Shown: positions 5,885 through 61,498 of the stretch, one piece after another
How positions within the stretch are numbered: the first letter of the stretch is position 1
Layout of the letters: each line of letters opens with the position of its first letter
DNA from: a virus
Lineage: Duplodnaviria > Caudoviricetes
Length of the DNA: 64,000 nt
Reading direction: 5' to 3' (one strand)
IMG/VR virus record: IMGVR_UViG_3300033072_001141
Coordinates: 1 to 64,000 of that record
Translations under genes and position numbers: made by a program
Notes under the pieces: generated by a model
What the model was told of the DNA's origin: nothing
What the model saw: the letters and a program-made list of their open reading frames with translations, nothing else
Database searches by the model: none

Positions 5885-5913
5885 ATCTTACGCTATCGTT
5901 TCGCGCTAGTCAA
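5885..5913 (-). promoter_or_regulatory. Sigma70-type promoter TTGACT-17-TAAGAT, probably leaderless
   Basis: Near-consensus; GTG/ATG follows 5-8 nt later. Confidence 0.75.
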
Positions 5914-7314: not shown

Positions 7315-7342
7315 ATGATACACGCTCACGACTGACAGTCAA
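7315..7342 (-). promoter_or_regulatory. Sigma70-type promoter TTGACT-16-TATCAT; near-palindrome GACTG-A-CAGTC (7330-7340) overlaps the -35
   Basis: Consensus match upstream of the Gp157 RBS. Confidence 0.7.
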
Positions 7343-8884: not shown

Positions 8885-9250
8885 CTACTCGGAACTGTCC
8901 AGCCGTCGCCGCGTCTCCTCGAACAGCGAATCGAAGCTCGGCTGGGCCGGAGGTCTCACCTTCGCCTTCCAGTAGCTCTCGATCGCCACGACCGTTCGCG
9001 ACGGAACCGCCACCAGCGCTTCCTCGACGAGCGCCACGAACAGTTCAGGGGTCTCGGGCCGAACGCTCGCTCGGCTCATCCCGACGACCGCGACGTAGGT
9101 GTCGATCGGCAGCTTGCCGCTGTCGTACGCCTCGGTGACGAGCCTCACGCGCTCGGCATGGCTGGCGGTGGCCGCGAGCATCCTCAGGAGCTTCGCGCCG
9201 CTCGGCGCCTGCTCCTGCAAGGATGCCCGCAGCTCATCCGCGATGCTCAC
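8885..9250 (-). CDS. Hypothetical protein with shared leader (MSIADELRASLQE)
   Basis: GTGA coupling. Confidence 0.65.
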   Translation of the reverse strand: MSIADELRASLQEQAPSGAKLLRMLAATASHAERVRLVTEAYDSGKLPIDTYVAVVGMSRASVRPETPELFVALVEEALVAVPSRTVVAIESYWKAKVRPPAQPSFDSLFEETRRRLDSSE

Positions 9251-10632
9251 TTCTTGCCGCCCTTGCGCATGACGACGAACTTGCTCTTGTCGTAGTTGCC
9301 CTTCTCGTCCTTCGGCCAGACGAGGGTCGCGTTGCCGGTCCACGCGCCACCGACCCCCATGAGGGACGGGAGGTACTTCTTCACGGCCTTGCCCGCCGGA
9401 CCGCCCATCGTCTTCGCGAAGTCGGCCAGGTCCACGACGTGCCTGTCCGGCGCGTCCTGGATCATCATGTTGATGAGGTCCTTGACCGCCGCGATCTCCT
9501 GCTGGGACTCGCTGGAGAACTGCTTGTACTTCTCCGGGTCCCACCACGGCTTCTTGCCCTCGGAGAGGAGCGCCTCCAGCTCTCCCGACAGGCCCTCGCC
9601 GCGCATCTGGGCGTCGACGTGGGCCTTCTTGCCCGAACGCTGGGCCTTGTTGAACTTCTTCTTGTCGTCCTTCTTGCCGGTCGGGCCTTGCGACCAGAAC
9701 TCGCCGGCAGCCGCCGTCTCGCCCCTGCCGTAGCCGGTGCCCTTCGACCGCGCACCCTCGGTCGCGCCCTCGGCCATGCCCCCCTTGCGCTTCTTCTTGC
9801 CGCCGCACCCGCACGCCTCGCAGGTGTCGCCGTCCTCGTCCTCGTCGTCTTCCTCGTCGTCGTCTTCCTCGTCGTCGTCTTCCTCGTCCTCGTCGTCCTC
9901 TTCTTCTTCGCGCAGCTCGCCGACCTTCACCGCGTGATCGGCCGCCTTGCCGGCGAACTGCTCCAGCTCGCGGAGCTTGCGCACGATGGGGGTCAGGAGG
10001 GTCCCCGCCTCGGTGTTGCCGGCGCCGACGCGCCGCAACCCGTCCATCTGCTTCTGCGCGTCCTTGAACGCCTTGAGGATGTCGTCCAGGCGCGACTGGA
10101 ACATCTTGTTCAGGGCGCCCTCCGCACCCTGCTTGATGAGCGTGGCCGCCTCGTCCGCCGGATCCGCGGCGCGCTCGAAGAAGCGGTCCTCGCCGATGGA
10201 GAACGTGGACTTCCCGTGGCGCGCGACGCCGCGCTTGACGGCGTTCACGGTGTCGATGACCCACTTGGTGGGATCGTTCGCTGGCACGAACGCAGACGAC
10301 ACGAGCGCCTTCCCCACGGTCACGGCGACGTTGAACCGCCCGGCCTGCTCCTCCGTGTCGATGACGACGGCGAAGTCGTTGCCTCCCATGCCGCCGGAGA
10401 CCGAGATCACGCCGCCCTTCGCGGTCACCTTGACGCCGGACACCCCGTCTTCCTTCGCGAGCGCCGTCTTGAGGGAGGTCGCGAAGGTCTTGCCGGCGTC
10501 CGGCTCGCCGTACGCGCCCTCGGGGTCGCCGTAGTGGATGGAGGACCCAGCGCCGAAGCCGGACCGACGCCTCCCCTCGTCGAGAGGACCGTCGGTGATG
10601 GTTCGCAGTTCTTCGAGAAGGTTCATGGTCAT
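9247..10632 (-). CDS. Putative internal head/scaffold-like polyprotein with acidic tract
   Basis: Leader MNLLEEL...PLDE; D/E tract; Lys-rich segments; several x-x-E linkers. Confidence 0.7.
   Translation of the reverse strand: MTMNLLEELRTITDGPLDEGRRRSGFGAGSSIHYGDPEGAYGEPDAGKTFATSLKTALAKEDGVSGVKVTAKGGVISVSGGMGGNDFAVVIDTEEQAGRFNVAVTVGKALVSSAFVPANDPTKWVIDTVNAVKRGVARHGKSTFSIGEDRFFERAADPADEAATLIKQGAEGALNKMFQSRLDDILKAFKDAQKQMDGLRRVGAGNTEAGTLLTPIVRKLRELEQFAGKAADHAVKVGELREEEEDDEDEEDDDEEDDDEEDDEDEDGDTCEACGCGGKKKRKGGMAEGATEGARSKGTGYGRGETAAAGEFWSQGPTGKKDDKKKFNKAQRSGKKAHVDAQMRGEGLSGELEALLSEGKKPWWDPEKYKQFSSESQQEIAAVKDLINMMIQDAPDRHVVDLADFAKTMGGPAGKAVKKYLPSLMGVGGAWTGNATLVWPKDEKGNYDKSKFVVMRKGGKK
9832..9909. 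repeat. Low-complexity repeat encoding a poly-Asp/Glu tract
   Basis: TCCTCGTCGTCGTCT tandem at 9851-9880. Confidence 0.9.
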
Positions 10633-11123
10633 GGCCTCAGCTCCGCGATGATAGCGCCCACGGCGACGGAAAGGACGATCCCGATGCCCAGACCGAGGAA
10701 GAGCGAGAACTCGTCCCCGTTCTCCTCCCACCACGTCCTCTGGGCTCGGGTGCGCCAGGTGGTGATCTCCTCGTCGGCGAGCTGGAGGTAGCGCTCGTAG
10801 ACGGCGCGCTCACGCGCCCATGTCCGCAGATCGATCTGGTACAGGCCGCGCAGCTCGTCGTACGCGATGCGCAGGCGCGCGGCGCGCGCGGCTCTGGCGT
10901 CCGAGAGAAGGATGCCGCTGCGTCGATCGCCAGGAGCCACCTCCGCGTCCTCGACCGGCGCGACCCAGTCGTCCTCGGGGGCGATCTCTTCTCGGGTCGG
11001 ATCCTCGGGAAGCTCCGCGAACGCGACTGGCTCTGGCATCATGCGGGAGGTCGCCTCCGGCAGCGCTGCCGCGCCGCATCCGGAGACGTACGCCACAAGA
11101 ACCAGGACCGACACGAAGCGCAT
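10629..11123 (-). CDS. Putative unimolecular spanin (lipoprotein with C-terminal TM helix)
   Basis: Signal MRFVSVLVLVAYVSG-C; C-terminal FSLFLGLGIGIVLSVAVGAII. Confidence 0.65.
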   Translation of the reverse strand: MRFVSVLVLVAYVSGCGAAALPEATSRMMPEPVAFAELPEDPTREEIAPEDDWVAPVEDAEVAPGDRRSGILLSDARAARAARLRIAYDELRGLYQIDLRTWARERAVYERYLQLADEEITTWRTRAQRTWWEENGDEFSLFLGLGIGIVLSVAVGAIIAELRP

Positions 11124-11194: not shown

Positions 11195-11443
11195 TCAGGC
11201 GTTGCGCGCCCGGTCGTACGTGTCGCGGGTCGCCGCGTCGTCGGCGTAGGCGACGGCGATCTGGCCCTTCTTGATCATGTTGTTGAGGGGCTTCCACGCC
11301 GGGTTGCCCTTCTCCTCGCCGTTGTTCAGGTCGGCGAGGTTCACACCGAGCGCGAACGAGCCCGAGGGCGCGAGCGTCCGGTTGAAGGGGAACGGGACAT
11401 CGACCGAGGCGGTGGCGGAGAGGTTCGTGACGGTGGCAATCAC
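11195..11443 (-). CDS. Small putative virion protein, paralogue of the 54420-54839 N-terminus
   Basis: MIATVTNL vs MDATVTNL. Confidence 0.65.
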   Translation of the reverse strand: MIATVTNLSATASVDVPFPFNRTLAPSGSFALGVNLADLNNGEEKGNPAWKPLNNMIKKGQIAVAYADDAATRDTYDRARNA

Positions 11444-11871
11444 TGTTCATGCTCCTTCGTCTCTACCGTGCGCTGGTGGGGACAGTACCCGTAGCGACCC
11501 AGAGACATATTGCAGTTGTGACAGAGTACCCGGTACCCATCCGGGAAGCCATTTTTCTTGAGCCACCTGGGCATCGGCATCCTGATCTGCTTTCGATGCT
11601 GTGCGCCGCCGCCTTCGATGTGGTCGATCGCCAGGAACTCGTACCTGCTTTCTCCGCAACAGGCGCAAGATCCACCGTAGTGACGGAGCACCTCTTCGCG
11701 CAGCCTGCGCTGCCACCTGGCTACGTTCGCTCGCGTCTGCGGGCGCCTCTCTTCCCTGTACCTGCGATCACAATCTTTGCAGTGACTTAGCCGGCCGTCC
11801 GCGAACTTGTTGTTGACGTGAAAGTCCGTCTCCGGCCTGGTGGCACCACACTTCACGCACTTCTTCTCCAC
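11440..11871 (-). mobile_element. Free-standing HNH endonuclease with N-terminal zinc finger
   Basis: CVKC..CKDC; YGGSCACCGE...LAIDHI...LCHNCN. Confidence 0.88.
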
Positions 11872-12370: not shown

Positions 12371-12592
12371 TCAGTTGTCGGATGACGACTGGATGGTACC
12401 ATGGCTCACGCACGGAGGGACCTTCACCTTGCACTCCCCGACCGGCTCTCCGTCCGGTCCTGGAACGCATCGGCACGAAGGGTCGAGCGACATGCACTCC
12501 TCGTGAGGGTCGTCGATCCCGCAGGTGGTGCAGAAGTTCCCCGGCCAGGAGAGCTTCCATGTGTGCCGGGGCGGTGCCGCCCCGTCGCTCAC
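12371..12592 (-). CDS. Small Cys-rich protein
   Basis: CTTC, C..C..C; GTGA coupling. Confidence 0.55.
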   Translation of the reverse strand: MSDGAAPPRHTWKLSWPGNFCTTCGIDDPHEECMSLDPSCRCVPGPDGEPVGECKVKVPPCVSHGTIQSSSDN

Positions 12593-12810
12593 CGGTCGCC
12601 CGGACCGTAGATGAACATCCGGTCGCCGTTGTGGTCCTTCGACGACTCCCGCTTCTTCATCTCGGCCTGCGCCTCCTCCTTCGAGAGGAAGTTGCCGATC
12701 AGGTAGAGCTGCTCGCCCGGGGCCTCGAAGTCGTCGAGACCGACGAGGTTGTAGCCCGACTCGGGCACGTGCTTGGCCTTGTCCGCGGCCATCTTGTCCA
12801 TGAGACCCAT
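12589..12810 (-). CDS. Small hypothetical protein; candidate partner of the RelA/SpoT-like enzyme
   Basis: AAGGAG RBS; has its own promoter. Confidence 0.65.
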   Translation of the reverse strand: MGLMDKMAADKAKHVPESGYNLVGLDDFEAPGEQLYLIGNFLSKEEAQAEMKKRESSKDHNGDRMFIYGPGDR

Positions 12811-12833: not shown

Positions 12834-12867
12834 AAGTTAGCAGGTGGTAACCGTTGGTCAACGGTTA
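12834..12867 (-). promoter_or_regulatory. Promoter TTGACC-16-TAACTT overlapped by perfect inverted repeat TAACCGTT-ggtc-AACGGTTA
   Basis: -10 at 12834-12839, -35 at 12856-12861, palindrome at 12848-12867. Confidence 0.7.
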
Positions 12868-13710
12868 TGCTGCCATGGGGATGCAGCCGATGGCGCTCTT
12901 GACAGCTTCCGGACACGGTGGCGGCATGTTTCCGCTCTTCCCGGAATCCTTCTGGAAGAAGAAGTCGGCCATCTGCTTGGCGTACTGCGAGATGGTGTCC
13001 TTGTTCTTCTCCACGAGCTTGGCCTGGAGCGGAGTCGTCGGCTTGTAGGCGTCGTGGAACCAGTCGGCCCACACGTCCTGGTTGGCCGTCCTGACCTGGA
13101 TCTCCTTCGGGAGACCGTCGTCGTCCACGATGACCAGGTGGTGGGACCGGTACCCCTCCTCCTTGGGGTTGTTGATGTAGTCCTCCTCGTCCTCGGAGAG
13201 GGTCTTGTACTTGGCCTTGATGGCCGCGACCGTCCGCTTCACCTCGGCGACCGTCTTGTGGACGATGCGCGCGCCGGTGCCGTCCTTGAGCTGGTCCGCG
13301 CGCTTGTACTTCGGCTTCCGGACCATCTTCCCGAGCATCGACTCCAGGTTCTTGGTCCTGGCCTTGACCTTGGCTCCGGGTCCGGCGATGTCGGTCAGAG
13401 ACCCCAGCAGCTTCTTGGCGCCAGCCTCGTGCTGAGACCGGAACGCCTTCGCGAGCTTGACGTGCTCGCCGAAGGACATGCTCTGATCGAAGCTGCCTCC
13501 CTTGAGCGCCTTCTGGAAGTCGCCGACGGTCCCGGCCACCTTCTCCAGGTTGCGCTGGTGCTTGGAAGCAGCCTCAGCGTCGCCCTTCACGCGCTCCCAC
13601 TCGCCCTTGGCGGTCTTGATGAAGTCGCCCGCCTTCCGCTTCCTGACGGTCCCGGTGGGGTACGCGGCGCGCTCGTTGAGCGCCTGGTCGAGGTCCTCGC
13701 TGAGCTTCAT
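12865..13710 (-). CDS. RelA/SpoT-type nucleotidyltransferase (small alarmone synthetase-like)
   Basis: RTKNLESMLGK, DGTGARI, DYINNPKEEGYRSHH, EIQVRT, WADWFH; ATGA coupling. Confidence 0.9.
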   Translation of the reverse strand: MKLSEDLDQALNERAAYPTGTVRKRKAGDFIKTAKGEWERVKGDAEAASKHQRNLEKVAGTVGDFQKALKGGSFDQSMSFGEHVKLAKAFRSQHEAGAKKLLGSLTDIAGPGAKVKARTKNLESMLGKMVRKPKYKRADQLKDGTGARIVHKTVAEVKRTVAAIKAKYKTLSEDEEDYINNPKEEGYRSHHLVIVDDDGLPKEIQVRTANQDVWADWFHDAYKPTTPLQAKLVEKNKDTISQYAKQMADFFFQKDSGKSGNMPPPCPEAVKSAIGCIPMAA

Positions 13711-14453
13711 GGTCTCTCCGGCCACTTCGACGCCAGTGGCATCATGCTCACCTTGAGCCTGGCCGCGTCGTCGTCCTGCATCTTGTCACCGCTCACGGCG
13801 GCGGAGAAGGCTTCCGCGAACCGATCGACCTGGTCGGCCCAGACCTCGCGCTCCTTCGCCTTGAACATGGACGCCCACACCGCGCGACCCAGTTCTGTCG
13901 CCAGCGCTGCCACGGATCCAGATGGCCCTGGGGCCAGCGCGATCGTGTCCCAGTCGCGGTCGTAGACCGCCCACTTCCCGGTGCCGCTCCACGTCGGGTC
14001 GAGCACCATCGTCAGCTCGGACACATCGAGCCCCCACTCCGAGAGCTTCCGAACGGCGACTCGAACCGTCTCCACGGTCCTGGCCGCCTCGGCTTCCGTG
14101 TACCCCCATGGGTTGCCCACGGCGAAGTCGCCGACGACCTTGATGAGCGGGTCCGCCACCCCGATGCCATCCCGAACCTTCGCGAGGGCTCGCTCAAGCT
14201 CGTCGCGTAGAGCCTCCAGAGCCTCGGCGGCAGTCCGATCGTGCCTCGACACGCGCACGTCGTGGATGCGCTGGCGAAGCCCGGTGACCATCCGGCGCAC
14301 CTCTGGGCGATCGCCGTGGAGACGGCCAGAAATCGTCTGCGCGAGGTCCGCCAACTCCAGCAGCTTCGCGCGCCGGGTGCCAACGACGGAGACCGCGACC
14401 GACACCTGGCCGATCTCCTTGGCAGCCCGCTGAATCTGCGTCGCGAGGTCCAT
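13707..14453 (-). CDS. Protein with degenerate zincin-like C-terminal domain
   Basis: AVYD..DTIAL...TELGR...FAEAF; HExxH is replaced by TELGR. Confidence 0.55.
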   Translation of the reverse strand: MDLATQIQRAAKEIGQVSVAVSVVGTRRAKLLELADLAQTISGRLHGDRPEVRRMVTGLRQRIHDVRVSRHDRTAAEALEALRDELERALAKVRDGIGVADPLIKVVGDFAVGNPWGYTEAEAARTVETVRVAVRKLSEWGLDVSELTMVLDPTWSGTGKWAVYDRDWDTIALAPGPSGSVAALATELGRAVWASMFKAKEREVWADQVDRFAEAFSAAVSGDKMQDDDAARLKVSMMPLASKWPERP

Positions 14454-14462
14454 GGAGAACGG

Positions 14463-15062
14463 TCAGAGGTTCCGGCCGAGCGCCACTTCGGCCGGCTTAC
14501 CAGAGGCAAGGCGCCAAGAGATGGTGTGGCGCTTGATCCCCGTCTCCCGCGACCATTCGGCCAACGTCATCTCCTTACCGAACGCGGCGATACGGCGGTT
14601 CGTTGACTGGTTGTTGCATTGCTCCCGCTGAGTGGCCCACCGACAGTTCTCCGGAGAGTAAGGGCCGTCGTTGTTGCGTCTGTCGAGGGAAGTTCCGTTG
14701 GGTCGCGGTCCCATGTCGTTCAAGAAGTTCTGGAACCCCATCGGACCGCACCATCGCTCGTCCACGAAGATCCCGCGCCCACTGTAGCGGGACGCCTTGG
14801 CCCTGTTCGCGTCAGAGCACCGCTGGTGCATCGCCGTCCAGGACTGGTACTCCGGCGTCAGCGCTGCGCTGACGCCATGGGTGGTTGCCGAACAGGTCCG
14901 GCACGCAATAGTCGATCGAAAGTGCGTCAGGTAGCAGACGGATTCGCGGCCACAGTCGCACCTAACATGGACCCTGGTGCATCCGCGGATCGGAGCCGCC
15001 TCGGCAACCACGACCCTGGTTCCGTAACGCTCTCCAATGACGACATTGGCCTTGGCCGGCAT
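14463..15062 (-). mobile_element. Free-standing HNH-type endonuclease (RCDCG / SLDRxxNDGxY family)
   Basis: RCDCG, EYQSWTAMHQRC, SLDRRNNDGPYSPENCRWAT. Confidence 0.9.
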
Positions 15063-15064
15063 GG

Positions 15065-15391
15065 CTACAAACTCCGCTGGAGCCACCCGGCGAGCTGGCG
15101 CCGAGCCTCCTTGGGGTCGGTCTTGCCGACTTCCTCGATGCGCTCGATCTCGGAGCGCTGCGCCTCGGCCGTCGCCGTGACCTTGGCCTTCTCGACCTCA
15201 CCTTCGAGGTGGACGCGCTCGACCTCTTGCTTCGCCCGATCGGCGAGCGTGGGAGGAAGCGGATCCGTCCCGCCACCTCCAGTGCCCTTGCCCGGCCTGG
15301 TGGTGAACCTCCAGACGACGAAGAACACCGTGGCAGCCACGGCCACGAAGGCCCACCACCACTGCCGGATGAAGCGCCAGGCTGCCGTCAC
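15065..15391 (-). CDS. Putative inner-membrane spanin-like protein
   Basis: N-terminal TM (WWWAFVAVAATVFFVVW) followed by coiled coil. Confidence 0.55.
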   Translation of the reverse strand: MTAAWRFIRQWWWAFVAVAATVFFVVWRFTTRPGKGTGGGGTDPLPPTLADRAKQEVERVHLEGEVEKAKVTATAEAQRSEIERIEEVGKTDPKEARRQLAGWLQRSL

Positions 15392-15954: not shown

Positions 15955-16134
15955 TCAGCCCTCCGTGAGAGAGCGCGGCCCGCGCGGAGCGCGCTGCGGC
16001 GCGTCGTCGGTCAGGAGACGCTGGCCCGACTGGTTCTTGATGTCGGCGTGTCCGCACTCCTGGCAGGTCACCCGCGTGGTGTTGGGGCCCGCCGACTCGA
16101 CGAGCACTCGGCCTCCGCACTGGCTGCACTTCAT
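15955..16134 (-). CDS. Zinc-ribbon protein
   Basis: MKCSQCGG...CQECG; ATGA coupling. Confidence 0.65.
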   Translation of the reverse strand: MKCSQCGGRVLVESAGPNTTRVTCQECGHADIKNQSGQRLLTDDAPQRAPRGPRSLTEG

Positions 16135-17924
16135 GACGCTCTCCGATTGCGCTCCTCGGCCACGACGACCTGGAGGTTCTTGCCGATCTTCGAGATCTTG
16201 CCACGGATGCCGCGGTGGCGGAGCCACTTCTCGAAGTCGGCCTCATCCATGTCGTCGGTCGAGACCGTGAAGATCTCGACCGTCGGGTCCATGTAGTCGC
16301 GCGAGTGGCGAACCGGACCCTGGCTTCGCTCGGACAGCGTCTCGACCGACTCGGTCTTGGCGCTGACGAAGTCGGGGTGGTCCTCGAACTTCGACCTCAC
16401 GTCCGCGGGAGGCTCCATCTCCTTCCACATCCTGCGGTCCTGAGCCGAGATGCTCTTCTTCACCGGCTTGGGGAAGCGACCGCTGTCCTTCATGAAGGAC
16501 TGGAGACCCGAGAGGCCGCCGTTCTTCTGGTCCTCCAGCGGGTAGAACCAGCCACGGTTGGTGGGGCCGCCGTCGTAGTAGAGGTAGGTGCCGAGCTTGA
16601 ACGTCTTGAGGTGCGCGAACTTCTTGGCGTTCGCCTCCGCAGAGGCCCGAAGCGCAGCCACGTCCACCGGGACAACGCCCTCCTCGATGGACTCGGTCCG
16701 GTACTTCCGGACCAGCGCCGGCAGCTCGGCGTCGGTCGCGTCCGGGACCTCGCGCTTGAGCTTGATCGCCCCGTTGACGGTCATCATCACGCGACCGCGG
16801 AAGCCGGCGTTCTTCATGCCGGGCCAGAAGACCTCGGCGACGCCGCTCCCACCACCGGTCGCCTTCGGTCCGCCCTTCACGACGATGGCCACCTTCGTCC
16901 CGTCGGCGGTCGCGACGTTCCACGAGGTCACCGGCTCGTCGCCGACGGTGGATGCGTGCATCGACCCACCAGGAACGTCGAACGACTTCGCTCGCTCCGA
17001 GGCCCCCTTCGCGATGTTCTCCGCGAGGCTCTCGCTCTTGAAGCCCCACCGCGTGGCGAGCTGGACGAGCTTCTCGTCCGGGATCTCGTCCATGTAGACG
17101 CCGGTGTAGGACTTGACCCCGAGGACCTGCGCCCAGGTCCCGGCCGGCAGCGTCAGCATCCTGCCGCCCTTCTTCATCTTGGCGTCGGGCGGGAGCTTGG
17201 CGTAGACGAACCGCTCCATGGCGGTTCGGACCTTGGGGGAGAGCGCCTCCGCCTCTTCCGAGACGCCGCCGCCGCCCTTCATCATGAGGTTGCCGAGCCC
17301 GTAGAAGGCGTCGTACTTCTCGGCCGCCGACTGCTGCTTCTCCAGGTAGTCCGTGTCGCCGCCGGGGAACTGCACCCACCCGTTCTGGATGAGCCACTTC
17401 GCGACCTTGACCCAGACCGCACCACTGCCGGACGAGGGCGCCGGGTACGGCGGGTGGATGCCGACCGACGTGCCCTTGACCGTCTTGTGCTGCTTGACGC
17501 TGTAGCCCTTGCCGCCGACCTCACGAACGAAGTCGCGCAGCGCCTTGACCTCGTCCTCGGTCGGGCTGCGCATCGTCGCGCGCTCTTCCTCGACGGCCTG
17601 CGGGTACCCCGGGTCGCTCTTCGGGAGCGGGTCGCCGCGGAGGTTCTTGGACTGGAGGATCCAGTTGAGCGTGTCGTCGTCGAGGTCGTCGAGCACGGCC
17701 GAGACCGCGCGTCCGCGCTGATCGAAGAAGACCACCGCGGTCCTGCCGTCGATGAGCTGGACCTTGTGCCTCTCGGGGGTCGCGCGATCGATGAAGTCGA
17801 TCAGCTCCGCCCTGGACTTGTCGTCGAACGAGGTCTCGCTCGGGCGCGGCGGATCGAACTCGGGTCGGCGGATGGCACCGTCCGCGTTCTGCTGCTCGAC
17901 CAGGCGCATCATCGCCGAGTACAT
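16131..17924 (-). CDS. Putative capsid-internal polyprotein (about six modules)
   Basis: AAGGAGAGGTGA RBS; recurring ES-x-x-E linkers. Confidence 0.75.
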   Translation of the reverse strand: MYSAMMRLVEQQNADGAIRRPEFDPPRPSETSFDDKSRAELIDFIDRATPERHKVQLIDGRTAVVFFDQRGRAVSAVLDDLDDDTLNWILQSKNLRGDPLPKSDPGYPQAVEEERATMRSPTEDEVKALRDFVREVGGKGYSVKQHKTVKGTSVGIHPPYPAPSSGSGAVWVKVAKWLIQNGWVQFPGGDTDYLEKQQSAAEKYDAFYGLGNLMMKGGGGVSEEAEALSPKVRTAMERFVYAKLPPDAKMKKGGRMLTLPAGTWAQVLGVKSYTGVYMDEIPDEKLVQLATRWGFKSESLAENIAKGASERAKSFDVPGGSMHASTVGDEPVTSWNVATADGTKVAIVVKGGPKATGGGSGVAEVFWPGMKNAGFRGRVMMTVNGAIKLKREVPDATDAELPALVRKYRTESIEEGVVPVDVAALRASAEANAKKFAHLKTFKLGTYLYYDGGPTNRGWFYPLEDQKNGGLSGLQSFMKDSGRFPKPVKKSISAQDRRMWKEMEPPADVRSKFEDHPDFVSAKTESVETLSERSQGPVRHSRDYMDPTVEIFTVSTDDMDEADFEKWLRHRGIRGKISKIGKNLQVVVAEERNRRAS

Positions 17925-17926
17925 AC

Positions 17927-18442
17927 TCACCTCTCCTTCGACTCGTGGGCACGCATCCACGCTGCGATGCGGACGTGTTCTTCTGGCGTTCCGTTGCTCT
18001 TGAGCGTGTTGGCGCGACCACTGATCACCGCGATGTTGCCGCACACATAGCCCAGCGACGGCTCAATCCTATCGAGCGTGGGCGAATGGTCACGGCGTCC
18101 CTTACCACGACCCTGCTCCAGCTTGATTCCGAGCACCGGACAGAACTCCGGAACGAAGATGTCATCGACCGAGATCTCGAACGGAACGCCCTTCCGCTTT
18201 GCCCTGGCACGAGCCGACAGCCAAAGCTGTCTTGCTCTCGTCCTGTGAAGCCACTCGCGGCGCCACGCGGTGTACTTCTCGTGGTTTTTCTCTCTGTACT
18301 TGGCGTGCGCTCGCGATCTGCACGCCTTGCACTGGTGGCCGCGTGCCCTCCTCTCGCTCTCCGGCTTGCTCTGCTGGCAGGTCGAGCAAACGAACGTCTG
18401 CTCTTCCGCCGGCTGAACAAGACGAAGATGCGAATCGAACAT
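17927..18442 (-). mobile_element. Free-standing HNH-type endonuclease
   Basis: CSTC..CKAC; FCPVLGI...SPTLDRIEPSLGYVCGNIAVISGRANTLK. Confidence 0.88.
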
Positions 18443-21420: not shown

Positions 21421-23580
21421 TCAGGTCTGAGTCCCGAACAGGATGAAGTTGAACGTCGCCATGCGGCCGGCCACATCGACGGCGAGGCCCGTCGCGGTGT
21501 CGAACATGGCGAAGTAGTGGGCCGTCGGCGACACCTGGACGTACGCGAAGGAGTACCCGAGCGTGTTGGTCGAAGCGAACCCGACCGCGTCATCGATCCC
21601 CACTCCGGTGGTGACCACGATGATGTGGCTGCCGCCCGCGAGCTGCCTCACCTGGGCGAAGTTGTAGCCGCCGACCACCGTCATGAGCGTCGGGAACGCC
21701 ACGCCGGTGTTGGACTTGCCCCACGACTTGCAGATGTTCTTGGCGTAGAGCGTGTTCTTCGCCGTCGTCGAAGTGGGGCTCGGGTTCGACTCGGTCGTGG
21801 ACGGTCTGTAGAAGTGCAGCGAGCCGTTCTCCAGGAGCATCTTCCCGGCGCCCACCTCGTATCCGCCGGGCGAGAACGGCACGCCGCCGATGCCGGCTCC
21901 GCCGAGCATCATGTTCGCGTAGTCCCACCCACGCGGAGAGTCCACGGGGATCGACGTGAGCTGGTCGAGCCAGCCCGCCGCGACGGAGCTGATCATGTTC
22001 ATCTCGAACACGCCGAAGATCGTGTTGCAGAAGGAGAACTTCTGGGCCTTCTGCGCGGCTCCGCTGGTGTTGTCCGCGTACCAGAGCGCGTCCGCGACAT
22101 CCCACCTCGCGTTGATCGTGAACTCGAACCCGATGGCGGTTCCGGCGGAGGTGATGTCCTCGAACCTCGTGAGGTAGAGGCGGCACCTCTCCGTGATGCC
22201 GCTCAGCGTGCCCTCGTAGATGAGGACGCGTCGATCGCCGGTCGTGTCGCCCATGACCAGACGGGGGATCTCCGACTGGTCGGTCCCGGTGAACCCAGAG
22301 AACTCGATCTGACCGTTCAGCAGCACGTCGCGCCAGAGACCCTGGCCGCGCATGAGGCGGAACACCTGCTCGATGACCGGAGGCCCCGCGAGCTGCGACG
22401 CCTTCACCATGAGCGCGGTTCGCTGGAGGAACTCGGCCATGGTCGTCGGCGCGTTGCTGTCGAACCCACCGCCGGGGTTCAGCGCGAGGCTGTCGAACGC
22501 CTGGGTGTCGCCCAGGTGAGCCTGCTCGAACACGTCGTCGATCGGGTGGATGCCCTCCACCCAGCACTTCACGTCGTCGAAGTAGATGGACCCCGCCGCC
22601 AGCGACGCGCCGTTGTTGTTGATGCCGACGTGCGGGCGCATCCAGACCGCGCCGGTGGGCACCTCGACCACACCGTCCACGAGCGTGTACGCGAACGACC
22701 CCGACAGCGTGTTGTCCTCGATCCACACCGTGGAGAGGAGGGTCATGTCGTTGTCGTAGAACAGCAGGGCCATGCCCTGGTGACCGCCCACCGCGATGCC
22801 TGGCCACGCGTTGCCGCGCATCCTCAGGCGCCCGCGCACGTACATGCCCGCGGAGACGCGCACGCGACGGTCGTGGATCAGCAGCCGGTTGTTGACCACG
22901 CCTGGGGCCGGCTGTTCGAGCTGGAACTCGCGGGTCCCCTCGTACGGGGCCGTCGTCGAGATGCGGTAGTTCGGCGTGCCGAACCCCGTGCCGGTCCACC
23001 CCTCGATCCCGAAGAACGACGAGAAGCCGGCAGCGAACGCGCGCTCGAATCCGCCGTTCTTGATGATCTGGTGCCAGGAGTCCGGAGCACGATCGTCCCA
23101 CGCCATCCGACGCGCGGTCGGCGTGATGTTCGCCGCCGGGATCGGACCGACGCCAGGGACGACGACGCGCCCGAGGATGACGACGAACGGCGCCTCGGCC
23201 ACCGGGGCCGTGAACAGCTCGGCCTGCGTGTAGGCGCGCCAGTTCACGACGGTGGTCGAGCCGATCGTGTAGCCGACGAAGAGGCAGATGTAGACCGTCT
23301 GGCCAGCCAGCGCGGCGAGGTCGAGCGAGACGATGCCGTCCTGCCTGACGGTGAACTGGAGGTCGTTCACGTCCTGGTAGGAGTAGATTGAGTCGCCCTC
23401 GACCGAGTCGGGGACGATGTTGATGCCGAACCCGGCGCCGGTCGTCTGGAGCTTGCCGCCCCGAACGACGCCCGAGCCGACGAGGCCGAAGAGCTTCTTG
23501 TTCAAGCCCTGCGAGACGTAGGGCTCCTTGAATCGCACCTGCGCGATGGAGTCCCCGGGGTTGTCGAGCGTCGTCGGCAT
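21421..23580 (-). CDS. Tail fibre / receptor-binding protein with CBM-like domain
   Basis: 719 aa, Gly/aromatic rich, IIKNGGFE motif, follows the baseplate genes. Confidence 0.75.
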   Translation of the reverse strand: MPTTLDNPGDSIAQVRFKEPYVSQGLNKKLFGLVGSGVVRGGKLQTTGAGFGINIVPDSVEGDSIYSYQDVNDLQFTVRQDGIVSLDLAALAGQTVYICLFVGYTIGSTTVVNWRAYTQAELFTAPVAEAPFVVILGRVVVPGVGPIPAANITPTARRMAWDDRAPDSWHQIIKNGGFERAFAAGFSSFFGIEGWTGTGFGTPNYRISTTAPYEGTREFQLEQPAPGVVNNRLLIHDRRVRVSAGMYVRGRLRMRGNAWPGIAVGGHQGMALLFYDNDMTLLSTVWIEDNTLSGSFAYTLVDGVVEVPTGAVWMRPHVGINNNGASLAAGSIYFDDVKCWVEGIHPIDDVFEQAHLGDTQAFDSLALNPGGGFDSNAPTTMAEFLQRTALMVKASQLAGPPVIEQVFRLMRGQGLWRDVLLNGQIEFSGFTGTDQSEIPRLVMGDTTGDRRVLIYEGTLSGITERCRLYLTRFEDITSAGTAIGFEFTINARWDVADALWYADNTSGAAQKAQKFSFCNTIFGVFEMNMISSVAAGWLDQLTSIPVDSPRGWDYANMMLGGAGIGGVPFSPGGYEVGAGKMLLENGSLHFYRPSTTESNPSPTSTTAKNTLYAKNICKSWGKSNTGVAFPTLMTVVGGYNFAQVRQLAGGSHIIVVTTGVGIDDAVGFASTNTLGYSFAYVQVSPTAHYFAMFDTATGLAVDVAGRMATFNFILFGTQT

Positions 23581-30665: not shown

Positions 30666-32780
30666 TCATGCTGCCGCCACCTGTCCGGTCAGGGTGACGG
30701 TTCCCTTGGTCACCACCTGCTTCGACTCGATGACGAGGTTGCCGTCTCCATCGACGAGCAGAGCGGGTCCGGTGATGCGGAAGATCGCGTACATGATTCC
30801 GTCCACGCCCTTCTGACCGGTCGATGGATCGGGGACGATCGAAGCGTAGAGGTCGCTGAGGCGCAAGGACTTCCCGAACGGGCGGACCTGGAGGAGGCCG
30901 TCGAGCGCCTTGCGGACGTTCGAGAGAACGGTCGCCTGGACGTACCCGTCCCGGATGCCGATCGTGCCCGTGATGTCCGCGCGGACCAGGTACGGGCCGC
31001 CGGAGACAACCTCCACCACCTGGGTGACCTCCTTCCGCTCTTCGAGGTACGCCTCCAGGCTGCGCATGAGGGCGATCGGGGGCTCGGTGAGGAAGCCGTC
31101 CACGTCCCGGGTGAGGATGGGCACCTGGACGAGGTTCGCCTGGCAGTCGGCCGCGAGGAAGGCATCGACGTGATCGAAGATCGCTTGCAGCTCGTCCTCG
31201 ACCAGGTTCTCGAACTGGGTCGTGACCCTCGTGATGATGGCGGCGATCGTCGTCTGCTGCGCGGCCAGCTCGGTCGTCTGGACGGAGAGCGCGTTGGTCA
31301 CGTCCACGATCGAGGCGTTCGCGTCCGCCGTCGCCTGCTCGATGTTCCCGGTCGCCGTGACGATTGCCTGGACCTGAGCTTCGACGTTCGAGAGCTGCGT
31401 CTTGATGTCGTTGAACGCCGCGTCCTTGAGCAGAAGCGTGGCCGCAGCAAGCCCCTCGTCGGCTCGCACCGACGCGTTGTTCGCGATGACGCGGATGGAC
31501 TGTGCCGCCGACCGCGCGTCGATGGCGTCGCCCGCCGCGCTCGGCGTCTGCGGAGCAGTCACGATGGCGTCCAGCGACGCCTGGATGTCGGTCGTGACGG
31601 CCGTGTCGATGTCCCCGCGCGCGCCGTCGATGGCGACGCGGTTGGCCTCGGCGGAGTTGGCCAGCGCCGTCACGTCGTCCGCGACCGGCTGCACCAGCCC
31701 GCGGATGTTGTTCAGGAGCGCCTGGAGTCCAAGGTCGTTGTCGGCTCCACGAGCCACGAACGCCTGCGCCACGGCCACGGAGCCGGCGAGAGGGTCGCTG
31801 AACGTCTGCGAGAGGCCGACGTAGTCCTCCTGCGTCACGGCGACGTTGCGGGCCTTGAAGAACCGCGGCGCGTTCGCCTTGGCGGTGGTCGTGTCCTCGG
31901 GGTCGGCTCCACCCGAGCTGGGCGCCGGGTTCGTGATGGTGAGGGGGATGGCCTGGAACATCACCACCAGAGGCGCGACCACATCGGTGATCGTTCCGTT
32001 CAACACGAGGCCGCTCTTGCCAGAGGTCGCGGTGTAGACCACCACGATGCTCGCGCCGGAGGCGGGCACGTTGCCGGCGACGCCGTCTCCGAAACGAACG
32101 GTCGTGGGGTCCGAGTTGAAGTCCACCTCGACCTGGTTGGTCTGATCGAAGGTGATCAGGTCCGTGATGTCCCACGGCACCCCGGCCACCGTGACCGAGA
32201 CGGTGCCCTCCGCGACGAACTTCCCGTCGCCCGGGTTCAGCCGGAAGACCTGGTTCTTGGACCCGTTGGACGTGAACGTCTCGGTCCTGGTCGTGCCCTC
32301 GCGGCAGGCGATGGTCCTGGCTGGCGAGAGGGGGCCCTCTCCGGCCAGGAAGGTCACCGCCTCGGTCGCCTCGAACACCAGGCCGGACGGGCCCTCGAAC
32401 TGGAAGCCGACGGGGACGGGGACGTTGAAGGCGTAGATCTGCCGGAGGTTCACCTCCAGATCCACGGAGGCGGCGATGCCGCCAGCCATCTTGTAGCCGA
32501 TCTGCCGACAGAGCCGGTTGACGGCCTTCCTGGTCCGCGCCGTCAGGAGATAGCTCTCCGACGCCTGGCGATCGATGTAGAAGCTCAGCGTCTCCGCGGC
32601 CCACGCCACGATGTCGATGAGCATCTGGCCGGTCCCCGAGACGACGAAGTCGTTGAACTCGGTGACGAAAAGGGTCTGAATCCTCGCGACGATGTCATCG
32701 ACGAAGCTGAAAAAGTCCTTGCCGGCGAAGCGGGCCCTGTTGATCTGCGCGGCAGGGCTCTCGATCTGGATCGGATCCAT
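30666..32780 (-). CDS. Baseplate wedge protein (baseplate J / T4 gp6-like) with coiled-coil insertion
   Basis: GKDF..., YLLTAR, TVRFGDG..G.VP, GGADPE, AVTQEDY. Confidence 0.9.
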   Translation of the reverse strand: MDPIQIESPAAQINRARFAGKDFFSFVDDIVARIQTLFVTEFNDFVVSGTGQMLIDIVAWAAETLSFYIDRQASESYLLTARTRKAVNRLCRQIGYKMAGGIAASVDLEVNLRQIYAFNVPVPVGFQFEGPSGLVFEATEAVTFLAGEGPLSPARTIACREGTTRTETFTSNGSKNQVFRLNPGDGKFVAEGTVSVTVAGVPWDITDLITFDQTNQVEVDFNSDPTTVRFGDGVAGNVPASGASIVVVYTATSGKSGLVLNGTITDVVAPLVVMFQAIPLTITNPAPSSGGADPEDTTTAKANAPRFFKARNVAVTQEDYVGLSQTFSDPLAGSVAVAQAFVARGADNDLGLQALLNNIRGLVQPVADDVTALANSAEANRVAIDGARGDIDTAVTTDIQASLDAIVTAPQTPSAAGDAIDARSAAQSIRVIANNASVRADEGLAAATLLLKDAAFNDIKTQLSNVEAQVQAIVTATGNIEQATADANASIVDVTNALSVQTTELAAQQTTIAAIITRVTTQFENLVEDELQAIFDHVDAFLAADCQANLVQVPILTRDVDGFLTEPPIALMRSLEAYLEERKEVTQVVEVVSGGPYLVRADITGTIGIRDGYVQATVLSNVRKALDGLLQVRPFGKSLRLSDLYASIVPDPSTGQKGVDGIMYAIFRITGPALLVDGDGNLVIESKQVVTKGTVTLTGQVAAA

Positions 32781-37056: not shown

Positions 37057-37386
37057 TCACCTTCCTTCCAAGCCGCGCGTGGGACGCCGCAGGATCTCGG
37101 AGAAGACGCGCCGACCAGACGGGATGCGGATGGTGTCGCCGCTGTTCAGGTCGTTGGGAAGCAGCTCGAACCCGTTCGCGATGGCGATGATCCACCACAG
37201 CTCGGGCGAGCCGTAGAACCTGGTCGCGATCTTGTCGATGCGGTCGTTCCGATCGACCTTGTACTTGATGTCGTCGGGCGCCACGTCGATCACCGGGTAC
37301 TCGGGGTACTCCCAGTGCTCGACGCCGTCGATGGTGATGAGCCTCGCGTTCTTGAGCCGGCTGGTCTCTCGTAGAGAGACGGTCAT
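37057..37386 (-). CDS. LysM-domain baseplate protein (gp53 / gpX-like)
   Basis: DRIDKIATRFYGSPELWWIIAIAN...GDTIRIP. Confidence 0.9.
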   Translation of the reverse strand: MTVSLRETSRLKNARLITIDGVEHWEYPEYPVIDVAPDDIKYKVDRNDRIDKIATRFYGSPELWWIIAIANGFELLPNDLNSGDTIRIPSGRRVFSEILRRPTRGLEGR

Positions 37387-40300: not shown

Positions 40301-40949
40301 GCCTCCTGACCGCGTCTGCCCCGAACCCAAACGCCTCGCCGATGGCCGTCACACGATCCACCAGCGCCGACGCGCCGTCTGCCCCCAGTTCGTAGCCCTC
40401 GGAGAGCCTGGTGAGCAGGGATGCGAGCTGCTCGCCGGAGAGGATGTTCGCCTGGATGCTGCCCGCCACGGTGCGCAGCGAGATCCCGAAGTCGTCGAGG
40501 CTGTTGCCGCTTCTGGCGATCCCGGTGACCGCGGAGATCATCTCGTTCGCGTCGATGTCGAGCGAGTAGGCGAGGCCGGAGATCTCGCCACGCATCCCTT
40601 CCACCTGGTCACGCAGCGGACCAAGTCCGACCGTCGCTCGTCTCCACGTGTTCGAGAACTCGACGCCGAACGACTCCAGACCCGTGTCGCTCGGGTCGAT
40701 GCCAGCGCGATCGGCCAGGCCCTCCAGCGAGTCGCCGATCCGATCGAGCTGGGCAAGGCTGATCGCTCCGATCGCGTTGCCGAGCCGCTGGAGCGAGCTG
40801 GATGCACGGCCCGCCTCCTCCACGGAGGTGGCAACACGGTCCATGCCCTCGGCGACGTTGCCGGCGGCGCGAGACGCTCCCGCGTCCCTGGCTCCGAAGA
40901 CGAAGCCGAGACCCAGGAGGCGCCCCATGCCAGAGCCAACTCCAGCCAT
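37383..40949 (-). CDS. Tape measure protein
   Basis: 1188 aa, Ala-rich helical, hydrophobic middle, follows the chaperone. Confidence 0.9.
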   Translation of the reverse strand: MAGVGSGMGRLLGLGFVFGARDAGASRAAGNVAEGMDRVATSVEEAGRASSSLQRLGNAIGAISLAQLDRIGDSLEGLADRAGIDPSDTGLESFGVEFSNTWRRATVGLGPLRDQVEGMRGEISGLAYSLDIDANEMISAVTGIARSGNSLDDFGISLRTVAGSIQANILSGEQLASLLTRLSEGYELGADGASALVDRVTAIGEAFGFGADAVRRLPEIISAADPVLARFSGLSIEQTTESVTRLSLAMQRYLGGSFEDASQAAIGVFTGLADVRGAMTELVTGTGSELSPLLEELAIASGDVDGAMNMLMSDPIRFAESLRGLVSTMDRSSPAYNRLQTALAQMPEQFQFLVTGGEEASAALEAATQPVGEFEGAFNRMARSGAGTARTFSESMDRLRDGFETSLNSITRHQRGMNMDRVMMQRQREAYDRVAGTVRNLASRDGGLGLLTRAFLNVRRYGMQGFVESVTEVTDRYLPSLSSHLRDALPFVGELGSAFAEIAPTLVPMLLAMNQLGIGSAFRWLRSGASSIVGFLGPWGLLVAGVAAGAGLITYYWEDISNLFESIDWAGIAHEAAQSFMGGLEWLAAGAFNIGAWIRSVDWVSVGQTIGDGFRQAFEFVANLFTGEFNGDIANFFADAFDMPADEIVPTILGLLGDIFSETIGQIPTIARGILGGLFGEEVVDSVIEGIASLPSRMMDQVNGILGIMLWPFEQVFGSDQISMLFHQGGVMAIFYDFYDFVVATFEVMGDAWDDVIAPMAEIAWDVTSEVGSAFADLWSETIQPILDLVGEWWTVDFVDGQEGAQEQIISTGDSFRMMWQRFIRPALYAFVRSQADAINRFRGWIPVFQSVARFAVRSFFAINSAIRNFRTTFEGARDTLAAGWQLIGTRVRRFFTQPILQAGDSFMTIFENIQMTVAGLRISFLQIIQSLVSGIQTAFNAIPEPLRSAMGLVGDSLDAAVSSLNAEVTREESRITAARAEIENERRERAAAVAAQDAEVVAAEAALAAVVAENRARAARERSEAAAAMTRELAGIDSFGERLDSTLERAAERLGAIGTDVQDLEGALPDVATTTTETGTTVVTPVTEDDDTRPPVAARTVEDAAGGAGGGADIGAPRTRARARMEAAAAAEEATGRERARDIAREMVVSAFGPEAVRQLGSALARGGGPTRARGSRAGGSGEEMTR

Positions 40950-53033: not shown

Positions 53034-53582
53034 TCAGTAGCTCGGAGTCAGAACCACGTTCCGACCGATGATGTCACCCAGGGTGGTGAACCTTCCCTCG
53101 CCCAGTTCGAGTGGGGTGGGAAGCTGGGACACCCGGTTGATGAACTCTCGGAGGGTCATGTCCTCCTCGGCCATCTCCGTAGCGATCAGGTTGTACAACG
53201 ACGGCCACTTCTCGACCATGGCCAGCACGTACAGCCCGCGGTTGAGGGACCAGTGGTTGCGCGACTCGCTCCTCCACCCACCGGAAGAACGCAGCGCGCG
53301 ACCGAAAGCCCTGGTCGGATCCATCTCTCGCAGGTCGATACCCTGCTGCGCGAACCTCTCCGCCGCGGACAGACCGTAGGCCGACGCCGCGTTCTCGCGG
53401 ATCCATCGGCGCCAGCTCGCCTGGTCCAGACCCTCGTGGCCCATGACCATGACTGGCAGGACGCCCTGCGCCTCCTGCGCCGGCCGAGATGCGTTGTCGA
53501 GACGCACGACACGCACGATCAGCCCCTCGTCGTCCGGAGGGGCGAAGGCGAGCGCGGAATCGAGCTGCTCGGAGAGCTTCAT
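53034..53582 (-). CDS. Hypothetical protein with shared leader (MKLSEQLDSAL), leaderless mRNA
   Basis: TGaTACGGT 7 nt before ATG. Confidence 0.7.
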   Translation of the reverse strand: MKLSEQLDSALAFAPPDDEGLIVRVVRLDNASRPAQEAQGVLPVMVMGHEGLDQASWRRWIRENAASAYGLSAAERFAQQGIDLREMDPTRAFGRALRSSGGWRSESRNHWSLNRGLYVLAMVEKWPSLYNLIATEMAEEDMTLREFINRVSQLPTPLELGEGRFTTLGDIIGRNVVLTPSY

Positions 53583-60804: not shown

Positions 60805-61178
60805 CTCTCCACCCCCGTGTGCGAGTCGATCGGCTTCCACGGGTCGTCGCCAGACTCCATGACCCGCGTCAGCACCGGCAGGTGCTTCTTGCACACGCCG
60901 ACCAGCCCGGGTCCCTTGTTCCCCTCGACGATCTTCGAGGCTGGCTGACCGCACCGGAAGCAGAGCTTCGCGATCATGTCCCGCGTGAGCGGCCCCTCGT
61001 ACTCCGGGAACCCCATGCCTCCCAGCGGTCCGGCGCAAGCCTTCTTCTCGAAGGCCGCGCGACACTGGTCAAGACCTCGGTCGAGTCCCCAGTGGAGCTT
61101 CACGCACATCGCGCACGGGAAGGCGTAGCCCTTGGCGAGCGCCGACTGAACCTGGTCCTTCGGGATGGTGTAGATCAC
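60801..61178 (-). CDS. Cys-rich hypothetical protein
   Basis: CAMC, CFRCG...CKKH. Confidence 0.65.
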   Translation of the reverse strand: MIYTIPKDQVQSALAKGYAFPCAMCVKLHWGLDRGLDQCRAAFEKKACAGPLGGMGFPEYEGPLTRDMIAKLCFRCGQPASKIVEGNKGPGLVGVCKKHLPVLTRVMESGDDPWKPIDSHTGVER

Positions 61179-61498
61179 TGGCCGGCCGTGCTGTGCGCCC
61201 ACTGCCTTCCGTACGGGCCGGGCTTGTTCGACCTGACGAAGAGGTTCGGTGGGTCCGATCCCTGGGGCGCCCCGAACTCCGGCGGCGTGACCCAGAGCTT
61301 GTAGAGCGAGGTGTCCACGTCGAAGTTCACGTCGGTGCCGTCCTCGTTGGACCTCACACGCACAAGACCGCGCTTCGGATCCACGTCCTCGACGTAGCCG
61401 CTGGTCACCACCTCTCCGCCCGGCGTGCGCACGACGACGAGCTGCCCCACGTGGATGGAGACCTTGATGGCATTTTCGAGCTGCTCGGAGATCCGCAC
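61175..61498 (-). CDS. Small beta-barrel-like protein with shared leader (MRISEQLENAI)
   Basis: ORF track; codon bias. Confidence 0.65.
   Translation of the reverse strand: MRISEQLENAIKVSIHVGQLVVVRTPGGEVVTSGYVEDVDPKRGLVRVRSNEDGTDVNFDVDTSLYKLWVTPPEFGAPQGSDPPNLFVRSNKPGPYGRQWAHSTAGQ

Follow-up and report, generated by a model that had tools for sequence, protein, structure and literature searches.

The locus considered here lies in the viral record IMGVR_UViG_3300033072_001141 and consists of a RelA/SpoT-type synthetase gene and a small gene directly downstream. The window, i.e. the whole stretch of DNA that was analysed, comprises positions 1–64,000 (64 kb) of this 81.8-kb record, for which CheckV gives a completeness of 43%. 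The synthetase, P0001, is by prediction a small alarmone synthetase (SAS). The small partner gene, which was missed in the earlier finding on the synthetase, is the strongest new feature of the locus, and we read its product as a putative immunity-like inhibitor of the synthetase, based on the conserved adjacency of the two genes. Together they may form a phage cargo toxin-plus-immunity pair, i.e. a solo alarmone synthetase delivered by the virion and a partner of ~73 aa, and we give this reading an even chance of being correct.

The locus differs from known cargo systems in its solo form, its guanosine-type signature, a new partner family that has its own conserved promoter, and a leader peptide that is shared with unrelated proteins. 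Phage-carried RelA/SpoT enzymes have been predicted, and in the case of MuF-Apk2 partly shown, to be toxin-like cargo, and the locus bears on their role during infection. It also offers a clean two-gene test object, an enzyme together with a partner from a family that had no name before and has at least 66 members. The central features are:

12865..13710, (-): RelA/SpoT-type small alarmone synthetase gene P0001 (281 aa); from the open frame, Pfam, AlphaFold and Foldseek
13036..13380, (-): catalytic core with five synthetase motifs, residues 111–225; from Pfam, the 97-sequence alignment and the PDB profile ranking
12868..12945, (-): family-specific C-terminal tail, P264-x-C266 ... G275-C276; near-invariant in homologue alignment A1
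12589..12810, (-): small partner gene, 73 aa, candidate inhibitor/immunity protein; adjoins a RelA/SpoT domain in 21/22 contexts
12834..12861, (-): sigma-70-like promoter TTGACC-N16-TAACTT before the partner; one of 3 TTGACY-N15-18-TANNNT matches in the window

The synthetase and its small partner

The synthetase frame (12865–13710, minus strand) translates to 281 aa without stops, and its GC3 of 0.92 is a coding signature as judged by codon-position GC. A GGAG Shine-Dalgarno-like sequence precedes the ATG at 13710, the start overlaps the stop of the upstream open reading frame (ORF) at 13707–14453 as ATGA, and homologues share the same start position.

All five synthetase motifs are found. 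These are R118-T-K-N-L-E-S-M-L-G-K128 (motif 1), D143-G-T-G-A-R148 (motif 2), D177-Y-I-N-N-P-K-E-E-G-Y-R-S-H-H191 (motif 3), E203-I-Q-V-R-T208 (motif 4) and H219-D-A-Y-K223 (motif 5). They include the catalytic Asp, the catalytic Glu and the G-loop Tyr (R118/K120/S124/K128, D143/G146/R148, Y187/S189/H191, E203/Q205/R207/T208, H219/Y222/K223). In the 97-sequence family alignment R118, K120, K128, D143, Y187, H191, E203, Q205, T208, H219 and K223 are invariant. The Pfam RelA_SpoT family (PF04607) matches residues 118–217 with an E value of 2.3e-23 and 83.1 bits, relative to a cut-off of 27. It is the only Pfam match in the 281 aa, and no HD hydrolase, TGS/ACT, Phage_Mu_F, portal or second catalytic domain is detected. 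Thus the initial annotation, which described an intact synthetase with all its motifs and with no hydrolase domain, is borne out on both points: every motif it quoted can be read in the translation, the catalytic residues are invariant, and Pfam finds RelA_SpoT alone.

The AlphaFold model, made with the 97-sequence alignment, has a mean pLDDT of 95.1. It shows a helix at residues 2–11 (less confident), a three-stranded hairpin at 22–40, helices at 45–70 and 80–109, the synthetase core, and a helical C-terminal part that ends in a tail with two conserved cysteines. P264 and G275 of this tail are conserved in at least 90% of the 97 sequences, and alignments to RelP and RelA stop at query residue 238 or earlier, before the Cys tail. 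The best Foldseek matches of the model are RelP/RelQ (E about 1e-8). Profile searches of the PDB rank RelP first (78.7 bits), followed by RelQ (70), RelA (54), CapRel (36) and FaRel2 (25.6). The NCBIfam equivalog GTPPhKinYjbM (RelQ/RelP) scores 50.2 bits, below its cut-off of 320. Judged by these comparisons, the protein has a SAS architecture and is not an orthologue of RelP/RelQ; it is a solo, intact pyrophosphokinase of the RelA/SpoT family by predicted activity, and its SAS fold is closest to RelP/RelQ. RelP (YwaC) and RelQ (YjbM), which are the nearest solved structures by both profile and fold, have all synthetase motifs in common with it. The phage protein differs from them in its extra N-terminal leader, hairpin, two long helices and Cys-bearing C-terminal tail, and unlike the housekeeping RelP/RelQ it is phage-encoded and has a dedicated partner.

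A homologue of the partner adjoins the synthetase domain in 21 of the 22 contexts examined. These contexts comprise loci L002, L004, L005 and L006, the complete relative G001 (186,003 bp, with direct terminal repeats), 13 IMG/VR loci, the polyvalent fusion P0085 and three look-ups made from partner homologues. The partner is found beside the synthetase in the four loci, in G001 and in 12 of the 13 IMG/VR loci. The synthetase relative in L006 is 37% identical, and the L006 DNA looks markedly less GC-rich. A partner homologue also directly follows the polyvalent InPase-Zeta-RelA/SpoT fusion P0085 (1.2e-30), and the look-ups made from partner homologues found the gene beside a RelA/SpoT gene in all three cases. 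Enzyme and partner genes are convergent in two contexts (L038 and L030), and therefore the link between them is independent of one shared transcript.

The partner family has at least 66 members, none of which has a Pfam family or source name, and a conserved C-terminal motif, (F/Y)-(I/V)-Y-G. Similarity of the partner to IapK/Tis1 or to any named family was not found. The partner model (pLDDT 93.6) has the order alpha-beta-beta-alpha-beta, and a Foldseek search of this model against the PDB gave nothing at E ≤ 0.001. Natural fusions of the partner domain to a RelA/SpoT protein are not present among 170 proteins. In some phages the partner domain forms the N-terminus of a longer protein, one with the hairpin module described below and one with a PI3_PI4_kinase-like part. 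In one portal fusion of the clade, an HD_4 alarmone-hydrolase-type gene follows in place of the partner. A PI3_PI4_kinase-like gene recurs beside synthetases: it is found after the HD_4 gene that follows the portal fusion (P0087 context), and fused behind the small-partner domain (L027:4097–6250).

The partner is preceded by a sigma-70-like promoter whose −35 sequence is inside an inverted repeat, AACCGTT-GACC-AACGGTT (12849–12866), with perfect 7-bp arms, and this repeat overlaps the synthetase stop codon. The pattern TTGACY-N15-18-TANNNT has only three matches in the window (5885–5913, 7315–7342 and 12834–12861, minus strand), and each of them is in an intergenic gap just upstream of a gene, on the coding strand. 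Shuffled sequence gives a mean of 0.33 matches, and none of 100 shuffles reaches three. These matches probably mark host-polymerase transcription units in the 1–13 kb part of the window. Five other phages (L002, L004, L006, G001 and L034) have this element at the corresponding position; in others the enzyme and partner genes are tightly coupled with no such separate element. As far as can be read from sequence, the promoter fits a partner that is made early by host polymerase and an enzyme that is on another schedule, and its conservation suggests a directly testable timing circuit.

Fusions to virion proteins, the leader and the basic hairpin

With the synthetase as query, an exhaustive search gave 2298 cluster representatives at E ≤ 0.001, of which 109 reach E ≤ 1e-30. 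In many family members the domain, including the Cys tail, is the C-terminus of proteins of 700–1300 residues. Pfam searches of 37 long members detected Phage_portal_3 (5), InPase (4), Zeta_toxin (2), Phage_Mu_F (2), LPD1 (1), ddrB-ParB (1) and ParB_N (1). Explicit architectures are portal(70–441)...RelA_SpoT(830–931), InPase-Zeta-RelA_SpoT, LPD1-RelA_SpoT and ddrB-ParB-RelA_SpoT. The fused homologues (with Phage_portal_3, InPase, Zeta_toxin, LPD1 and ddrB-ParB) match at E values of 1e-39 to 1e-43. In a phage collection, the archaeal provirus Pro-Nvie1 provides the best match, a Rel_Spo-like protein. Sequence comparison thus places the synthetase in a large phage ‘cargo’ clade tied to virion proteins.

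RelA/SpoT is known as a domain of phage-type polyvalent and MuF-fused proteins, which are argued to be packaged and injected (Iyer et al., 2017, PMC5512222). The portal, MuF and polyvalent fusions described there represent the same catalytic clade, with the same predicted role, i.e. to be carried in the head, injected, and to trigger an alarmone-like response. The protein described here differs in that it is a solo 281-aa protein encoded outside the head module, with a leader and hairpin at the N-terminus and no covalent carrier. It should be pointed out that P0001 has a single catalytic domain, relative to the two or more effector-type domains by which polyvalent proteins are recognized. The small partner family and the shared leader are not described in the part of that paper that was consulted. 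Since the same domain is fused to portal, MuF and polyvalent proteins, virion delivery is supported at the family level; the fusions are family-level support and not evidence on this solo protein.

Two further arrangements in the family should be mentioned. Locus L005 (6712–10300 of a 289-kb metagenome contig) has three adjacent genes, each with a GT.R.R..G...K...G.W hairpin. They encode a Zeta-toxin protein, a ParB_N-RelA/SpoT protein and a 385-aa protein that has the small-partner domain as its N-terminus, and the trio resembles a polyvalent protein whose parts have become separate genes. Some homologues (P0138, P0154, P0033 and P0156) add a C-terminal CX5R phosphatase-like or ParB_N-like domain after the synthetase.

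The N-terminus of P0001 consists of a short amphipathic leader and a basic hairpin. The features concerned are:

13672..13710, (-): N-terminal leader MKLSEDLDQALNE, residues 1–13, with L-S-E5 and L-N-E13; from the SE.L..A count, the model helix 2–11 and homologues
13588..13662, (-): basic beta-hairpin module YPTGTVRKRKAGDFIKTAKGEWERV, residues 17–41; from the model strands, and present in 37/162 family members
53034..53582, (-): unrelated 182-aa protein starting MKLSEQLDSAL; leader in common with the synthetase
61175..61498, (-): unrelated 107-aa protein starting (M)RISEQLENAI, with a GTG start; leader in common with the synthetase

The leader MKLSEDLDQALNE and the basic module YPTGTVRKRKAGDFIKTAKGEW pointed out in the initial annotation are present as it gave them, and both are kept in homologues. 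In the model the leader helix is of lower confidence. The genome has 22,232 coding residues, in which the pattern SE.L..A is found three times, in each case at residues 4–10 of the protein. The carriers are the synthetase, the 182-aa protein (start 53582) and the 107-aa protein (start 61498), which are mutually unrelated, and the chance that all three would fall there if placed at random is about 6e-8. Orthologues of the 182-aa protein start with MKLSEQLDSAL in L008 and with MRLSEQLDTAL in L009/G001, and an orthologue of the 107-aa protein in L010 starts with MSLSEQLEDAI. In G001, the synthetase homologue and the 182-aa orthologue both start with MRLSEQL. The leader is a non-random, N-terminus-specific peptide common to three unrelated proteins. 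An Atlas search with the leader-bearing 182-aa protein gave nothing usable.

The leader Ser codon is AGC in the synthetase gene and TCC in the 182-aa gene, and therefore the likeness is at the peptide level. A DNA-level duplication, or capture of the start by a homing endonuclease, is not favoured as the source of the leader, in view of these codons and of the presence of the leader in orthologues from other phages. Start capture is further disfavoured by the gene directly upstream of the synthetase, which has no Pfam or PHROG endonuclease match.

In phage T4 a 10-residue capsid-targeting sequence is found on unrelated internal proteins, cleavage by gp21 follows L/I-x-E, and Alt is an injected enzyme (PMC9026906). 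A T4-type head module is just beyond the window, with Gp23 (1.3e-60), a gp21-like Peptidase_S77 (3.2e-18) and Portal_T4 (4.5e-62). The phage thus has gp20-, gp21- and gp23-type genes as does T4 (PMC9026906, PMC3012670). Also as in T4, unrelated proteins share an N-terminal peptide of roughly 10 residues that begins with MK, and L-S-E5 and L-N-E13 of the synthetase fit the L/I-x-E cleavage rule. Among 31 homologues with an N-terminal hairpin, 24 have [LI]-x-E 3–10 residues before the hairpin, relative to 8.6% of background windows. T4 Alt is a precedent for an injected enzyme that modifies the host. Two points set it apart from T4: leader and hairpin are kept together in many phages, and the leader does not have the sequence of the T4 capsid-targeting peptide. 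By analogy, a T4-style capsid-targeting signal is made plausible by the shared leader and by the presence of T4-type portal, gp21-like protease and gp23 genes. If the leader is indeed such an address, the T4 capsid-targeting idea would also apply in a distant, uncultured high-GC branch, and further packaged effectors could be sought from their sequence alone.

The Gp23-like capsid protein itself, outside the window (genome 64447–65958, minus strand; L007:1447–2958), has 62 residues before its Pfam match. These contain four L-x-E sites (LRE, LLE, LFE and LQE), which fits a propeptide cut by a T4-type protease.

The hairpin strands (22–25, 28–32 and 38–40) have a pLDDT of about 97. The module is found in 37 of 162 family members, and also in the neighbouring Zeta-toxin protein and the third protein of L005, and is at least a mobile module of effector-like genes, as in that locus. 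Short basic motifs before the synthetase domain (P0022–P0170) are of at least four interchangeable types, in both solo and fused forms: the GTxRxW hairpin, GPRGGxxY, HKYxxR...Y.Y and HPR..G(K/R)F. In fusions where a basic motif is close to the domain, the motif is 73–106 residues before the first synthetase motif. No description of these short basic motifs was found. The hairpin was also considered as an address shared by several proteins within the phage, and this was rejected on the basis of its single occurrence in 81.8 kb.

Proposed mechanism and alternatives

In the mechanism proposed, the enzyme would be made with the structural genes. The leader and hairpin would take it into a T4-type prohead, where the gp21-like protease may trim it after L-x-E, and it would enter the next host with the DNA. 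With ATP as the donor, it would then pyrophosphorylate a purine nucleotide, most likely a guanosine nucleotide, giving (p)ppGpp/pGpp, and host transcription and translation would be throttled; this step is suggested by the motif signature and the nearest relatives. The partner, from its own host-type promoter, would bind and silence the enzyme early in infection and thereby protect the producing cell. Silencing is suggested by the conserved adjacency and is modelled on the immunity proteins of MuF-Apk2 toxins. A more far-reaching version, which we consider doubtful, is that M-(K/R)-(L/I)-S-E-x-L-x-x-A represents a general capsid-loading code that injects a (p)ppGpp-type synthetase, timed by a new small-inhibitor family via the conserved host-polymerase promoter at the enzyme stop codon. 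If true, it would amount to an injected stringent-response pulse with a built-in off-switch.

Several observations weigh against the cargo-plus-immunity proposal. The synthetase gene lies outside the head module, ~50 kb away from the head genes. In the other two leader bearers the leader does not end in L-x-E (they have only (L/I)-S-E5), and one of these two proteins is encoded in the tail module. The hairpin occurs only once in the 81.8 kb. Leader and hairpin are one conserved unit across the synthetases of many phages, and therefore may be the enzyme's own N-terminal domain and not a phage-specific address. The high confidence of the hairpin in the model and the position of the basic motifs in the fusions are as compatible with a structural part of the enzyme as with an address. 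With respect to the partner, a domain that heads longer proteins is unusual for a pure immunity protein.

The initial annotation had put forward a virion-delivered enzyme with a capsid-targeting leader. The leader did prove to be real, N-terminus-specific and present on three unrelated proteins in a phage that has T4-type head genes, and delivery has comparative support in close family members (E down to 1e-43) that are fused to Phage_portal_3, MuF and InPase/Zeta/LPD1/ParB proteins. What is left in doubt is the targeting role, as leader and hairpin are possibly the enzyme's own domain, and delivery has against it the distance of the gene from the head module. Virion delivery of the solo synthetase is plausible as judged from these comparisons.

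The alternative that survives best is an intracellular enzyme that is not packaged, whose alarmone reshapes host metabolism or blunts nucleotide-based defence; the partner would then be a regulator, and the leader and hairpin ordinary parts of the fold. The solo protein, with neither a MuF nor a portal domain, would fit this, as would a gene far from the head module, a hairpin that is confidently modelled as part of the protein, and the retention of leader and hairpin as one unit. The tight coupling of partner and enzyme genes in several phages also suggests co-expression. However, the same catalytic module has repeatedly been fused to portal, MuF and polyvalent cargo proteins, two unrelated proteins carry the leader too, at their N-termini only, and in six phages a separate host-type promoter before the partner suggests that enzyme and partner are timed differently. 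We consider an intracellular role somewhat unlikely, and less likely than the cargo-plus-immunity pair.

A second alternative keeps the cargo-plus-immunity system and changes the chemistry: the enzyme would act as an adenosine 3′-pyrophosphokinase in the manner of Tas1 and MuF-Apk2, with (p)ppApp as its product and ATP being drained. The MuF-Apk2 toxins, from prophages of S. pneumoniae, M. haemolytica and P. multocida, have two kinds of immunity, the inhibitor IapK and the hydrolase Aph1 (PMC12226406). As characterized head-linked relatives that make only (p)ppApp, they are an argument for this alternative. What they have in common with the locus is a RelA/SpoT-fold toxin domain linked to the phage head and, behind it, an immunity gene, for which the conserved small gene directly downstream is the candidate here, and the portal fusion of the clade with its HD_4 hydrolase-type gene parallels Aph1. 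P0001 differs in that it has no MuF domain and has a guanosine-type signature, its partner has no detectable similarity to a named family, and its host is a large T4-like phage and not a temperate siphophage.

The residues reported to separate adenosine from guanosine pyrophosphokinases are RYT versus AVR, GxN versus SxH and YH versus IR (PMC12226406). The synthetase has GAR, SHH and VR at syn2, syn3 and syn4, which is guanosine-type, and the adenosine-type signature (RYT, GxN, YH) is absent. These guanosine-type residues (R148, S189-x-H191 and R207) are conserved in the family: R148 and R207 in at least 90% and H191 in all of the 97 sequences, and S189 in all 19 closest homologues. No Tas1-named chain is among the PDB profile matches listed at E ≤ 10, whereas RelP/RelQ score 70–79 bits. 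These findings make an adenosine product rather unlikely. It should be mentioned that swapping the signature residues did not convert the specificity of Apk2, i.e. the motif signatures did not determine it (PMC12226406), which speaks for the adenosine alternative, and that CapRel, a tRNA pyrophosphokinase, comes almost as close in structure as RelP/RelQ (Foldseek TMq 0.52). Because of these two points, (p)ppGpp/pGpp is predicted at about even odds, and (p)ppApp synthesis and tRNA modification are live alternatives. The guanosine-type signature raises the possibility that the protein, once injected, makes (p)ppGpp, in contrast to a (p)ppApp toxin that drains ATP.

The third alternative is a toxic SAS (toxSAS) toxin–antitoxin pair for abortive infection or competitor exclusion, comparable to mycobacteriophage PhRel and CapRel/FaRel2, in which tRNA 3′ ends are pyrophosphorylated once the antitoxin is displaced. 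The resemblance to CapRel, FaRel2/ATfaRel2 and PhRel (PMC11782079, PMC7229694) is that of a RelA/SpoT-fold enzyme beside a small structured protein of ~73 aa. The order of toxin and small protein genes is strictly conserved, the enzyme matches the PADLOC candidate defence family PDC-S33 (6.7e-25), and the partner has the size (73 aa) and the beta-beta-alpha-beta core described for ATfaRel2/pZFD antitoxins (PMC11782079). VIA-align places the partner weakly on the CapRel antitoxin domain (residues 256–345; Z 3.8, rmsd 4.3, 64 residues), a score tied with unrelated folds such as ClpS (4.3). The modelled fold, in its secondary-structure order and its weak CapRel fit, is compatible with a pZFD-like inhibitor as of FaRel2/CapRel. 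However, CapRel and FaRel2 reach only 36 and 25.6 bits in the profile search compared with 70–79 for RelP/RelQ, and this partner has no YXXY motif and carries (F/Y)-(I/V)-Y-G instead. In addition, the host phage is large and T4-like, no integrase was noticed among the genes scanned in it, and the clade is tied to virion proteins and not to defence islands, with portal, MuF and polyvalent fusions that are foreign to toxin–antitoxin defence modules. A toxSAS pair is therefore improbable.

Genomic setting and neighbouring genes

The sequence has a GC content of 66%, and the long high-GC3 ORFs that tile it are all on the minus strand. A contractile-tail module is inside the window, on the same strand as the synthetase and upstream of it, with sheath (55211–57706), tape measure (37383–40949), baseplate (30666–32780) and fibre (21421–23580) genes. 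The ‘late region’ to which the synthetase had been assigned is supported in part: the gene is downstream of the tail module on the same strand, and just upstream of the first of the three sigma-70-like promoter matches. The best-matching capsid protein of the phage collection has 34% identity, i.e. no close cultured phage was found there, and megablast of 10 kb around the synthetase gene against this collection gave no match. A tRNA scan of the window found none. From its genes, the source appears as an uncultured large T4-like phage of a high-GC branch distant from T4.

The gene directly upstream of the synthetase is:

13707..14453, (-): 248-aa ORF whose stop overlaps the synthetase start (ATGA); close relatives in L002 and L004 only, at 40–42% identity

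This ORF has no Pfam, PHROG, PADLOC or NCBIfam family, and has no counterpart in G001. As it is kept only in the two closest relatives, it was rejected as a general partner of the synthetase. Weak Atlas structural hints point to zincin-like, ATLF and LPD1 folds (TM scores of 0.41–0.49), and the sequence has no HExxH. An LPD1/zincin-like reading was not adopted in view of these scores and of a negative hhalign comparison with the LPD1-RelA/SpoT fusion. Downstream, the Cys-rich ORF that follows the partner (12371–12592) was compared with the Cys-rich ORF that follows the partner in L036, and no similarity was found.

An HNH endonuclease gene (14463–15086, minus strand) lies 0.75 kb upstream of the synthetase start, and an Endo VII-like gene (11440–11871, minus strand) about 1 kb downstream of the gene end. 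Both are part of the many endonuclease cassettes of this genome. Two large ORFs flank the synthetase–partner pair (9247–10734 and 16131–18044, minus strand), one for a protein with a long run of Asp/Glu and the other for a Lys-rich protein of 600 aa, and both are conserved in the same order in G001. These could be internal head proteins.

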